Source: Halobacteriaceae archaeon (GTDB taxonomy: Archaea; Halobacteriota; Halobacteria; Halobacteriales; Halobacteriaceae). Taken from it: a stretch of 16,418 nucleotides of DNA. The translations under genes and the position numbers were made by a program. The stretch lies in the NCBI GenBank assembly GCA_042216675.1, contig JBDGTS010000044.1:1-16418 (forward strand), in the 5' to 3' direction. A model generated the notes under the pieces. The model made no database searches. It was given only the letters and a program-made list of their open reading frames with translations, and was not told where the DNA came from. Each line of letters opens with the position of its first letter. The stretch's first letter is position 1. Positions 1-15,257 of this stretch are shown in pieces.

Positions 1-118
1 TCACGACCGGCGGGCCTGCGCTCGCTTCGCTCACGCAGACTCCGTCCGGACGTTCTTTCGTTTCCCTGTCACGTCCGACGAGCCCACGGCTCGCGCCGTG
101 GACTCCGTCCGGACGTTC
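1..118. repeat. Two tandem REP-like palindromic units (about 50-55 nt each), possibly continuing left of the window
   Basis: GACTCCGTCCGGACGTTC is identical at 38-55 and 101-118. The left arms TCACGACCGGCGGGCC (1-16) and TCACGTCCGACGAGCC (69-84) are related. Each unit has a central hairpin (CTGCG 16-20/CGCAG 34-38; CCACGGC 84-90/GCCGTGG 95-101). ACGTCCG 71-77 pairs with CGGACGT 110-116. Confidence 0.8.
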
Positions 119-13480: not shown

Positions 13481-13531
13481 TAACAACAGTGTCAGTCGAC
13501 CGCTACGCAAAAGCGTTGCTCTACCGGACAG

Positions 13532-14038
13532 TTAGCCGGTGTAGTTGATTGCGACGCGGTCCCCCACGGTGACGCCGTTGCGGTCGGTCCAGCCCCGGTT
13601 CACTTCGAGCACCCACTTCGCGGTGCCCCGATAGCGTGTGAGGTTCGCCTCGTCGGTTCCGGGTGGCGGCAGGGGCGCCTCGTGGATGGCCGTAATCGTG
13701 TGATTGGCGCCGACGAAGACGATGTCGAGGGGGAAGTCCATGTCCCGCATCACGTAGGCCTGTTCGCCCGCCCGGACGTGGACGAACAGCATGCCGGTGT
13801 TCTTCGGGAGCGAGTCGGTGTCGCTGAGTCCGGTGATCCGTTCGCTCCGCGTGTCCGCGATTCTCGTGTCGACGACTCCGAGTTCGGTGCCGTTCTCGCC
13901 GACGACGGTCACGGTTGCGGAGCCGTACGCGTCCCCGGTGTGCAGGAGCGTCGCCGGGACGTAGGCGGACGCCACGAGCGCCACCGCGAGAAGCGCCGCG
14001 AGGCCGGCGACGGCCGCGCCGAGGTGTCGGGCCTCCAT
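13532..14038 (-). CDS. DUF192 family membrane-anchored/secreted protein
   Basis: N-terminal TM, then IADTRSERITGL, GMLFV, MRDMDFPLDIVFV, WVLEVNRG and GVTVGDRV. Confidence 0.9.
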   Translation of the reverse strand: MEARHLGAAVAGLAALLAVALVASAYVPATLLHTGDAYGSATVTVVGENGTELGVVDTRIADTRSERITGLSDTDSLPKNTGMLFVHVRAGEQAYVMRDMDFPLDIVFVGANHTITAIHEAPLPPPGTDEANLTRYRGTAKWVLEVNRGWTDRNGVTVGDRVAINYTG

Positions 14039-14086
14039 CGCCGGAACGTGGGCACGACGCGGCCTAAGCGTTGCGGGGCGAGAGGG

Positions 14087-14098
14087 CAAACGTTTAGG
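14087..14098 (+). promoter_or_regulatory. Putative BRE/TATA of tRNA-Val
   Basis: CAAACG-TTTAGG about 25-35 nt upstream of the mature tRNA 5' end. Confidence 0.5.
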
Positions 14099-14122
14099 GC
14101 GCGCACGGGTAGTCTCGGGTAC

Positions 14123-14196
14123 GGGTTCGTGGTCTAGTTGGTCATGACGCGGCCTTTACAAGGCCGAGATCGGTGGTTCAACTCCGCCCGAACCCA
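14123..14196 (+). tRNA. tRNA-Val (anticodon TAC), intronless, CCA not encoded
   Basis: Acceptor GGGTTCG/CGAACCC plus discriminator A. D arm GTC..GAC. Anticodon arm CGGCC-TTTACAA-GGCCG (TAC at 14157-14159). T arm GGTGG-TTCAACT-CCGCC. Confidence 0.97.
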
Positions 14197-14425
14197 CTCT
14201 TCTTCCGTCGAGGCGTTGCATCGCCGAGACGCTCGTGTGGGGAGCGCGGAGTTGAAGCAGGGAGTGGAGCCTTGCGGAACGACCGTGGTTCAACTCCGCC
14301 CGAACCCACTGCATTTTGCTGCGAGCAAACCGCGAGCGGCAAATCCGTGTGTGAGGACGGATTGAACCGGACGGCGGCGAGCGGATGCAAGCCGACGGCG
14401 TTGTTCAACTCCGCCCGAACCCACT
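14173..14425 (+). repeat. tRNA-3'-end direct repeat array (3 x 26 nt)
   Basis: GTGGTTCAACTCCGCCCGAACCCACT at 14173-14198 (in the tRNA), 14285-14310 (identical) and 14400-14425 (1 mismatch). Spacers are 86 and 89 nt. Confidence 0.95.
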
Positions 14426-14471
14426 CGCATTCTGCGACGAACGGGAGCAACGTGGGTCGACTCCTCACGGT

Positions 14472-15257
14472 TCAGACGTCCCGCCGGACGAACCACGCCT
14501 GACTGGCGAGAACGAGGACAGCCGTCATCCCGAGGAGGACGGCCGCGTCGGCGAGGTCGTAGGTGCCTTCGAGGAGGACGTCGTTCGGGTCGAAGTACCG
14601 CATCGGCGCGACCGCGCCCAGCACCGCGTAGTCCGTGCCGCTCAGGAGCGACTCGACGAGATAGCTGCCGAACGTGACCCCGAGCGCGACGCGTTGGGCG
14701 ATGCTCGCGCGGTCGAAGAGAACCGACGCGAGGAGCCCGATTGCCCCACAGGCAAACAGGTACGGAATCGACAGCAGATGGAGCGCGACGAGGTCGGCGA
14801 CGGACAGCGACTCCCCGATGAGGGTGGCGCTGGCGAGGACGGCGACGGGCGTGACGGCGTTCACCACCAGAATCGGGACGCCGAGCGCGACGAACCGTTC
14901 GGCGGCGAGTCGCGGCCGCGACACCGGCATCGACAGGATGGTGTCCATCCGCCCGCGGTCGACGTCGTCGGCGATGATGCTCGCGGCGCTGTACGCGAGG
15001 TACAGCCCAAGCAGGATGACCCAGCCGAACATGTACAGTTCGACCGCCAGAAACCCTTCGAGCGAGGCCATCGTCTGAATGTTGAAGGCCCGAATCATCG
15101 GTTCGGGAAACGCCTCACGGAGTTGCGCCATGTCCATCGCTTGGCTGTAGGACGGGTACGCCCACACGGCGAACGCGGCCAGCAGCGACATTCCGACGGC
15201 GAGATACACGCTGCCCCTGACCCGCTTGGCGGCGTCGTACCGCGTGAACTCAAACAT
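14472..15257 (-). CDS. ABC-2 type transporter permease
   Basis: From MFEFTRYDAAKR: about 6 TM and the IIADDVDRGRMDTILSMPVSRPRL motif typical of ABC-2 permeases. Overlaps the ATPase stop by 8 nt. Confidence 0.9.
   Translation of the reverse strand: MFEFTRYDAAKRVRGSVYLAVGMSLLAAFAVWAYPSYSQAMDMAQLREAFPEPMIRAFNIQTMASLEGFLAVELYMFGWVILLGLYLAYSAASIIADDVDRGRMDTILSMPVSRPRLAAERFVALGVPILVVNAVTPVAVLASATLIGESLSVADLVALHLLSIPYLFACGAIGLLASVLFDRASIAQRVALGVTFGSYLVESLLSGTDYAVLGAVAPMRYFDPNDVLLEGTYDLADAAVLLGMTAVLVLASQAWFVRRDV

Follow-up and report, generated by a model that had tools for sequence, protein, structure and literature searches.

The intergenic stretch behind the tRNA-Val(TAC) gene described here belongs to a class-wide family of tRNA-tail repeat units in Halobacteria, whose hairpins fold on the sense strand of the tRNA and carry tandem G.A pairs. 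The window analysed is one entire 16.4-kb contig from a haloarchaeal genome bin that is about 80% complete. A first-pass annotation of this DNA had drawn attention to five hairpins with tandem GA/GA mismatches, lying in what it called spacers. The last 26 nt of tRNA-Val(TAC) occur here three times, and these spacers are what separates the copies. That the repeats are tRNA 3' ends, a point which the annotation had left unremarked, is the key to the anatomy of the array.

The array behind tRNA-Val(TAC)

The array occupies the whole of the gap between the tRNA-Val(TAC) gene and the stop codon of a convergent gene for an ABC-2 permease, and a divergent DUF192 gene lies upstream of the tRNA gene. 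Four neighbouring genes were profiled, of which three were assigned to DUF192, ABC-2 permease and ABC exporter families and the fourth had no family match. The repeated segment, or core, is the last 22–26 nt of tRNA-Val(TAC), comprising the T-loop, the 3' strand of the T-stem, the 3' strand of the acceptor stem and the discriminator. Repeat and pattern searches placed three 26-nt copies of the tail with starts at 14173, 14285 and 14400, and 3' of the tRNA gene there are two units of 112 and 115 nt, each closed by a tail copy. In order along the window, the features are:

14123–14197, + strand: tRNA-Val(TAC) gene, called by ARAGORN and matched by the Rfam tRNA model at 65.3 bits
14173–14198, + strand: reference copy of the 26-nt tail repeat, from the direct-repeat search
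14199–14310, + strand: unit 1, 112 nt, closed by core copy 1
14206–14231, + strand: hairpin A of unit 1, with a 4-bp stem, GA/GA, a 4-bp stem and a 6-nt loop; folds with both DNA and RNA parameters
14246–14256, + strand: left arm of unit 1, the complement of the T-loop and of the 3' strand of the T-stem, with its partner at 14289–14299
14258–14291, + strand: hairpin B of unit 1, of the class-wide type, CAGGGAG ... GACCGTGGTTC, an exact pattern match
14285–14310, + strand: core copy 1, 100% identical to the tRNA tail
14311–14425, + strand: unit 2, 115 nt, closed by core copy 2
14315–14343, + strand: hairpin A of unit 2, with an 8-bp stem, GA/GA, a 2-bp stem and a 5-nt loop
14355–14368, + strand: left arm of unit 2, a decayed complement of the T-loop and T-stem
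14375–14394, + strand: hairpin B of unit 2, with a 4-bp stem, GA opposite AA, a 2-bp stem and a 4-nt loop
14400–14425, + strand: core copy 2, identical to the tRNA tail at 25 of 26 nt (96%)
14426–14471, + strand: terminal stretch containing hairpin 5 (14433–14449), reaching directly up to the permease stop codon
14472–15515, − strand: convergent ABC-2 permease gene (Pfam PF12679)

The order of elements in a unit is hairpin A, then the complement of the T-loop and T-stem, then hairpin B, and finally the new copy of the tRNA tail. Folding and inverted-repeat searches show that the left arm pairs with the tail copy, hairpin B thereby coming to lie at the tip of a longer hairpin; in unit 1 the left arm forms an inverted repeat that is 88% complementary. 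Folded as RNA, the whole of unit 1 reaches −53.6 kcal/mol (z −2.93) and unit 2 −47.3 kcal/mol (z −2.16), and for both units the complementary strand gives the less stable RNA fold.

All five of the hairpins reported earlier lie in the sequence exactly where they had been placed and with the letters as written, including the fourth, in which GA had correctly been set opposite AA. As drawn, hairpins 1, 3 and 4 form under both DNA and RNA parameters, with RNA fold z-scores of −3.12, −2.48 and −1.79 respectively, and this part of the earlier description stands. In isolation, hairpins 2 and 5 are weak: the former has an RNA z-score of 0.10 and forms no fold with DNA parameters, while the inner stem of the latter is a single pair. 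Weak as it is by itself, hairpin 2 (14260–14284), whose internal loops are GA/GA and GGA/GGA, is yet one copy of a motif conserved throughout the class, being enclosed within hairpin B of unit 1. Hairpin 5 is a shortened member of a hairpin-A family (TTCTGCGACGA...) that is found directly 3' of tRNA-Val(TAC) in some relatives.

Among contigs of four DNA runs, one in X1 and one in X2 join position 14196 to 14281 or 14284 and so lack 84 or 87 nt; such junctions, which are given no weight here, could represent a variant that lacks unit 1, or an effect of the 26-nt repeat on assembly.

Distribution of the units in Halobacteria

ARAGORN made 32 tRNA calls in this genome, three of them spurious, leaving 29 real genes. 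In fifteen of these 29 the tail of the gene recurs one to three times within 340 nt downstream, on the sense strand, which makes 20 units; several of the other tRNAs lie at contig ends or have decayed units behind them. Upstream of the tRNAs, no tail copy was found for any of the 32 ARAGORN calls. Relatives within the family have units of like anatomy behind tRNAs for Ser, Arg, Ile, Cys, Gly, Pro, Lys and Val.

An exact search with the flank pattern of the type-I hairpin B found it in 280 of 401 Halobacteria genomes, representing 79 of 91 genera (the related genomes in this class sample being non-independent), and the reversed pattern, used as a control, had no match in the same 401 genomes. 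In a species-wide genome collection the type-I motif had at least 119 matches, and the 80 titled ones among those listed were all from haloarchaea. Viral contigs gave 19 exact type-I matches, all of them unrelated chance occurrences in coding or low-GC DNA from which the haloarchaeal context is absent.

The units are tied closely to tRNA genes. When 83 copies of the motif were inspected with 400-nt flanks, a tRNA on the same strand was present within 400 nt upstream of 73 of them, and a tRNA on the opposite strand was present beside none. The other ten lie mostly behind an intron-bearing tRNA-Trp that ARAGORN had missed, or are cut off at contig ends, and three of these ten copies adjoin larger inserts. 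Whatever the tRNA species, the tail copy matches that of its own neighbouring tRNA, mostly at 18–21 of 20–21 positions. The tail copies that bound units are 20–26 nt long, the inserted DNA amounts to about 75–135 nt per unit and is gene-less, and the units occur in arrays of one to four.

A literature search, which took in parts of the genome papers for Haloferax volcanii and Haloquadratum, found no published description of such units. A survey of tRNA-like elements in Haloferax volcanii reportedly appeared in 2012, and may include some of them. The units do not themselves resemble tRNAs: ARAGORN and Rfam call only the true tRNA, and of the 7 positions of the acceptor 5' strand the left arm agrees with 2.49, against 2.08 in controls.

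Hairpin structure, strand bias and covariation

In a genome-wide comparison with dinucleotide shuffles, such as the earlier proposal called for, a loose stem-GA-stem-loop-stem-GA-stem pattern was counted 989 times, and about 804 times in the shuffles; because this loose pattern is so frequent by chance, single small GA hairpins prove little. Enrichment is a local matter. Within 300 nt 3' of tRNAs the pattern reaches 2.61 per kb on the sense strand but 0.52 on the antisense strand; upstream of tRNAs it stands at 0.23 per kb, and in the genome as a whole at 0.45 per kb. At 53 sites of this genome GA hairpins lie away from tRNAs, some of them in tandem arrays; relative to genes, by crude gene calls, 5 were sense, 4 antisense, 5 both and 17 without an adjoining 3' end.

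Since the type-I class sample had been chosen by the motif itself, statistics on GA pairs and loops were taken instead from 49 units picked by the tRNA-tail repeat alone. In their minimum-energy folds, GA/GA makes up 74 of 87 2x2 internal loops; three-fold shuffling gives 5 of 79, and the antisense strand has 2 of 68. Counts of this kind lean on an energy model that favours GA/GA, an objection to which the shuffled and antisense controls are addressed. The tandem GA stands in a pyrimidine-GA-purine context. These loops are symmetric 2x2 loops, those of 3x2 or 2x3 form being far fewer, which rules out a kink-turn or box C/D motif, where tandem sheared G.A pairs adjoin a bulge of 3 nt on one strand. 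A tRNA intron with a bulge-helix-bulge was likewise ruled out by inspection, because the helix between left arm and T-loop lacks 3-nt bulges.

The hairpin loops are also distinctive. Triloops account for 54 of 102, about 29 of these being GNA closed by C-G, while only 1 of 19 tetraloops in the 49 units is GNRA, and G.T wobble pairs show no excess in the sense fold (82 versus 92). The heptamer GCGNAGC is present in 26 copies on the unit sense strand (5751 nt) and in 7 on the antisense strand, that is, at 4.52 and 1.22 per kb respectively, compared with 0.44 per kb in the genome; overall, GNA triloops and GCGNAGC are about tenfold enriched, on the sense strand only. According to part of a published account (PMC13037366), GCGNAGC forms an exceptionally stable DNA mini-hairpin with a much weaker RNA counterpart, and is found in nature at single-strand replication sites and promoters. 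The units contain the element that defines the d(GCGNAGC) mini-hairpin, a GNA triloop closed by C-G within GCGNAGC. Like tandem sheared G.A, however, the mini-hairpin is an element of structure rather than a genetic system, and its presence is silent on which nucleic acid folds. The earlier remark that tandem G.A pairs are especially stable in single-stranded DNA is borne out to the extent that the whole repertoire of tandem GA, GNA triloops and GCGNAGC is that known for very stable DNA hairpins. Of the 49 units, 40 have the more stable fold on the sense strand when RNA parameters are used, and 36 when DNA parameters are used. The mean advantage of the sense strand is −4.8 kcal/mol for RNA; for DNA the asymmetry, −1.5 kcal/mol, is small, which counts against serial insertion.

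Pairing was counted in 24 distinct 41-nt copies of the type-I hairpin B. Its four free inner-stem pairs are paired in 23–24 of the 24 copies, with CG/GC and AT/GC swaps, and over all free or half-free pairs in the type-I copies 304 of 336 cells are paired, against 267 ± 4.3 when shuffled. Hairpin A of unit 2 likewise has a compensatory change, GC/GC to AC/GT, in homologues from other genera. The pairing of left arm with T-stem is weaker, each pair being kept in 14–23 of 24 copies. The claim that shape is conserved while sequence varies is thus upheld, as the stems covary and, by both counts and folds, GA/GA is strand-specific; taken together, covariation and strand-specific GA/GA point to a structure formed by one strand. 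Both the single-strand fold and its strand bias are therefore supported by covariation and by counts.

Against the T-stem strand of its own tRNA, the left arm matches at 3.49 of 5 positions, with 2.60 in controls. This modest match, and the near absence of one to the acceptor strand noted above, count against serial insertion.

Behind tRNA-Leu(CAA) of Halorubrum, a unit and a second, shorter unit are near-invariant in eight species, across which the 5' leader and the outer flanks are unalignable. The near-invariance of this unit argues for selection at the host locus, and against insertion.

Origin of the units

The arrays preserve signs of order. Among the 53 arrays that have at least two copies, comparison of the last tail copy with the first shows greater decay of the last in 31, lesser decay in 3 and no difference in 19, with a mean of 2.40 mismatches in the last copy and 0.91 in the first. 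The hairpin-A family to which hairpin 5 belongs lies directly 3' of tRNA-Val(TAC) in four loci of relatives (L009, L010, L014 and L022), after one core copy in three others (L017, L020 and L021), and after two in the present array. Among the species of one genus, at least three unrelated tRNA-proximal units occur, and some species have none. Distal decay, the shifting position of this hairpin A and the heterogeneity among congeners fit repeated insertion beside the tRNA, with older units displaced outward. One genome (G212) has three identical copies behind three tRNA-Met paralogues, while in another (G227) the three copies differ from one another. In the two genomes checked, no hairpin-B variant was shared by two tRNA species, nor was an identical unit seen behind two of them, and recent movement between loci is thus not shown.

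Larger inserts with the same boundaries are known from relatives. In Natronorubrum (L198), tRNA-Val(CAC) is parted from a displaced copy of its tail by a 2.56-kb insert, which encodes a tyrosine integrase of 335 aa (PF00589); the arm beside the displaced copy has a stretch like the left arm and a GA/GA hairpin with a GCA triloop, and an ordinary mini unit then follows the insert. Haloterrigena salina has a decayed relative of this element at the same tRNA-Val(CAC). The integrase family is present in 107 of 121 Halobacteria genomes, and in 17 of 30 loci there is a tRNA-tail core at a distance of 130–600 nt past the start of the integrase. The boundaries of the core are thus common to the mini units and to genuine inserts that carry an integrase. 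The integrase gene cannot lie inside the present units, since their 112 and 115 nt are filled by hairpins and left arm. Two other candidates were set aside. Integrase relatives of the pleolipovirus/pHK2 type, at 34–42% identity, have attachment sites that are short and lie at the opposite end of the integrase gene, and their attP regions are without a T-loop core or GA hairpins. An 811-bp insert in another genome has a frame of 187 aa that recurs, weakly, in 1 of 401 genomes, and so gives no sign of a travelling gene cassette.

The best reading of these observations, to which a rough and tentative probability of 0.45 is given, is that gene-less hairpin cassettes have been inserted serially and site-specifically at the tRNA tail. 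The units would be small attachment-site cassettes, added singly by site-specific recombination, and the core targeted would be that of the widespread haloarchaeal family of tyrosine integrases. With one-by-one addition at the tRNA tail, the newest unit would lie beside the tRNA and older ones would be pushed out and decay. The left arm and the tail copy may fold back with hairpin B at the tip, to give a one-strand hairpin imitating the duplex target, and tandem sheared G.A pairs with GNA triloops would stabilise this fold on the tRNA-sense strand only. That a recombinase acts, that the folded strand is DNA and not RNA, what form the donor takes and that there is a single-stranded stage are all points that we infer. 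Serial insertion accounts for the core and the polarity of arrays, for an old hairpin that shifts in position, for the differences between congeners and for the DNA-type motifs. A link to recombination, proposed in the first-pass annotation, gains circumstantial ground, in that the repeated segment is an attachment core of tyrosine integrases and the arrays show the polarity of insertion. Further observations count against serial insertion. The units are gene-less, and the sole close match to the integrase in this genome is on a different contig (C30); the arms of many elements with an integrase have neither GA hairpins nor a T-loop complement; and the differently placed attachment sites of the pleolipovirus-type relatives, the GA hairpins at 53 sites away from tRNAs and the failure to see one unit shared between tRNA species weigh on the same side. 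Neither a protein partner nor a circle, an empty-site read or a single-stranded intermediate was observed.

Comparison with known systems brings out both likenesses and differences. Target choice by archaeal tyrosine recombinases at tRNA genes has been reviewed, as part of that review sets out (PMC8371274). The units resemble elements that integrate at tRNA genes in having a direct repeat from T-loop to discriminator, with an intact tRNA on one side and a displaced copy on the other. They differ in having no integrase gene inside, a gene that is present in the Natronorubrum relative. They differ from integrase-borne inserts, too, in their stereotyped pair of hairpins and T-loop complement, and in standing behind about half of all tRNA genes. 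The attC sites of integrons and the folded attP of phage CTX are single-stranded hairpin substrates of tyrosine recombinases. In integrons, new cassettes adjoin attI and older ones are distal, the mismatches of attC are extrahelical bases, and its stem imitates a duplex target. By analogy, the units may be likened to attC and CTX attP in their imperfect inverted repeats around a variable centre, in a strand-specific fold and in an order with new units proximal and old ones distal. Unlike integrons, they would have a tRNA gene as primary site, they lack a reading frame, and they have tandem G.A in place of extrahelical bases; no attI or promoter was found beside the array, and no intI among the four neighbouring genes profiled. 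It seems unlikely that the units belong to an integron-like system with tRNA genes as primary sites, in which the attachment site would be the stretch from T-loop to discriminator of most tRNA genes and folded single-strand cassettes, usually gene-less and occasionally gene-bearing, would be serially inserted by a tyrosine recombinase; the G.A pairs and GNA triloops would then fix the folding strand, as the extrahelical bases do in attC.

The RtT repeats, of 178 bp (Rfam RF00391), are arranged in tandem behind the tyrT tRNA-Tyr operon of E. coli and each contain a tRNA 3' end. They resemble the present units in this placement and content, and differ in organism group, unit length (about 110 nt here), hairpin motifs and the occurrence of the haloarchaeal units at many tRNA species. 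A cmscan of positions 13500–15000 gave no match to RtT at E-values up to 10, but only the tRNA and four weak, unrelated matches. The units also share with REP/BIME elements and their RAYT, and with the haloarchaeal PATE elements as described in part of PMC3119063, the character of small, gene-less palindromic repeats in many copies per genome. They are unlike these in being tied to tRNA tails and bounded by tail copies, and in that a Y1 transposase was not found here.

On balance improbable, though it must be taken seriously as the chief rival, is an explanation in which the unit is a structured RNA, a 3' trailer of the tRNA transcript that acts through its hairpins and its pseudo tRNA end and is selected in the host, with the tail copy kept identical by gene conversion with the tRNA. 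Such a trailer might serve as a back-up signal for termination or processing, or as a stabiliser or decoy for the enzymes of the tRNA 3' end. It would explain why the units always share the orientation of the tRNA and lie immediately 3' of it (none upstream in 32 calls; same strand in 73 of 83), and the covarying stems, the more stable sense RNA folds (mean −4.8 kcal/mol) and the conservation, in the eight Halorubrum species, of the unit and not of the 5' leader all favour it. Termination in archaea follows an oligo-T rule. As TTTT occurs within 12 nt after the discriminator in only 19 of 70 tRNAs of the class sample, and in 4 of 15 here, read-through into the unit is probable. Stable trailers do exist in Haloferax volcanii: part of one report (PMC3495736) describes 10 tRNA genes whose 3' trailers accumulate as stable RNAs, each with a read count above 1000, and a northern blot that shows the trailer of tRNA-His, about 60 nt long. 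Against this, the C-G-closed GNA triloops and the single GNRA among 19 tetraloops suit DNA hairpins better than a typical selected RNA, there is no surplus of G.T wobble in the sense fold (82 versus 92), ARAGORN and Rfam models find no match in the units at E-values up to 10, and neither distal decay nor proximal units that vary between congeners would be expected of a fixed RNA function. An RNA trailer and serial insertion are compatible, since inserted units could later be retained for a role in the transcript.

Two further explanations dispense with a tyrosine recombinase. The tail might have been duplicated without any dedicated enzyme and followed by replication slippage and template switching at quasi-palindromes, which would lengthen and correct hairpins made of low-complexity sequence of the GAGC/GCGA type, so that GA/GA would be a by-product of repeat composition. 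This appears quite unlikely, despite hairpins that are runs of 2-bp stems alternating with GA/GA (as behind tRNA-Leu(TAG) of this genome), hairpin tips that grow between orthologues by nested GA-xx-GNA-xx-GA insertions, identical tandem units at 87–113 nt spacing in several genomes, and the GA hairpins and tandem arrays found away from tRNAs in this genome. The units of one array usually have unrelated hairpins A and B, which excludes simple tandem duplication; 280 of 401 genomes have exactly conserved flanks of hairpin B, inserts that carry an integrase have the same core boundaries as the units, and strand specificity relative to the tRNA is strict. Retroposition of the mature tRNA was ruled out because the copies are not followed by CCA. 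An HUH nuclease had been offered in the first-pass annotation as one candidate for a protein acting on the folded strand, and REP-like palindromes, or palindromes of the PATE kind derived from IS200/IS605, could in principle be moved in single-stranded form by a Y1 HUH transposase targeting tRNA T-loops. The strand-specific, imperfect, DNA-type hairpins would suit such an enzyme, as would the GA hairpins dispersed elsewhere in this genome and the Y1_Tnp genes in 81 of 121 Halobacteria genomes, and gene-less palindromic elements are numerous in haloarchaea (PMC3119063, in part). Here the earlier suggestion fares badly, and we regard it as very improbable. Y1_Tnp (PF01797) was not found in this 80% complete genome nor in 40 of the 121 genomes, some of them rich in units: the Y1-negative genomes G073, G084 and G032 carry 9, 8 and 3 copies of the type-I motif respectively. 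Moreover IS200/IS605 elements insert without target duplication, whereas the units are bounded by tail copies of 20–26 nt, and no pair of subterminal palindromes with a 4–5 nt target was identified.

What the arrays record looks like the stacking of small folded DNA inserts onto tRNA genes, a phenomenon that is apparently undescribed. If serial insertion is the true explanation, the tRNA genes of a whole archaeal class would hold a readable, ordered record of small recombination events, and the units would represent a minimal folded attachment site of about 110 nt, possibly usable in tools for site-specific integration in haloarchaea. If the units act instead as RNA, most haloarchaeal tRNA genes would have a structured trailer module that has gone unrecognised, which would bear on the formation of tRNA 3' ends and on the stable trailer RNAs of Haloferax volcanii. 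In either case the hairpin grammar of GA pairs and GNA triloops offers a clean natural case of strand-specific folding, and annotation pipelines overlook a feature that stands behind about half of the tRNA genes.

Units behind other tRNA genes

Type-I units, those carrying the hairpin B class with conserved flanks, are also located downstream of intron-bearing tRNA-Trp genes at four loci (L080, L090, L112 and L116), where the tRNA genes themselves are not called by ARAGORN. In the tRNA-Val loci of genus g5 (L008, L012-L014, L017, L020 and L021), the T-loop GTTCGAAT is replaced in the tail copies by GTGAGAAT, and pairing with the left arm thereby gains an extra tandem GA/GA pair; in the tRNA-Val itself the normal T-loop is retained.

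A different arrangement is seen at locus L036 (G002 C1:442000-444600). The promoter and the 5' part of tRNA-Arg(CCG), as far as the T-stem, have been duplicated, and this duplicate runs straight into a unit whose tail is decayed. The fusion constitutes a hybrid pseudo-tRNA, and the intact tRNA-Arg(CCG) is located downstream of it.

Junction contigs and inserted sequence

Over window positions 14196-14284, one contig assembled from each of two metagenome runs (X1 and X2) connects the end of the tRNA with the beginning of core copy 1, a repeat of the tRNA-Val(TAC) tail, and omits 84 or 87 nt. These contigs represent either a variant lacking unit 1 or an assembly artefact arising from the 26-nt repeat.

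At L200 (G434 C67:303000-304300), an 811-bp low-GC insert is flanked by tRNA-Ser(TGA) on one side and by a left arm and type-I hairpin B on the other. The insert contains a 187-aa reading frame that matches no Pfam family and has a weak match in only one of the 401 genomes. At L210 (G057) and L217 (G135), a partial tRNA-Val(CAC), spanning the anticodon arm to the 5' strand of the T-stem, adjoins an integrase gene, and hairpins totalling about 75 nt are inserted exactly 5' of its T-loop.

GA/GA hairpins distant from tRNA genes

The genome to which the window belongs (G000) houses 53 GA/GA hairpins outside tRNA trailers. Clusters and tandem arrays are present among them, including one group of three copies spaced 73 nt apart. 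Certain of these clusters or arrays overlap stop codons, and particular forms recur, such as GA-AC-GNA-GT-GA within a 5-bp G/C stem.

Clusters and arrays of non-tRNA GA/GA hairpins in G000
Site 1, C13:46260-46450
Site 2, C2:39317-39450
Site 3, C45:3400-3560
Site 4, C9:26590-26670
Site 5, C22:24310-24370
Site 6, C2:111730-111860

The window itself begins with a GA/GA hairpin, and a direct repeat lies within the same 120 nt.

Features at the start of the window
14-40, minus strand, GA/GA hairpin
Within 1-120, 18-nt direct repeat, two copies about 63 nt apart

Positions 1-120 may be the margin of another repeat array, severed by the end of the contig.
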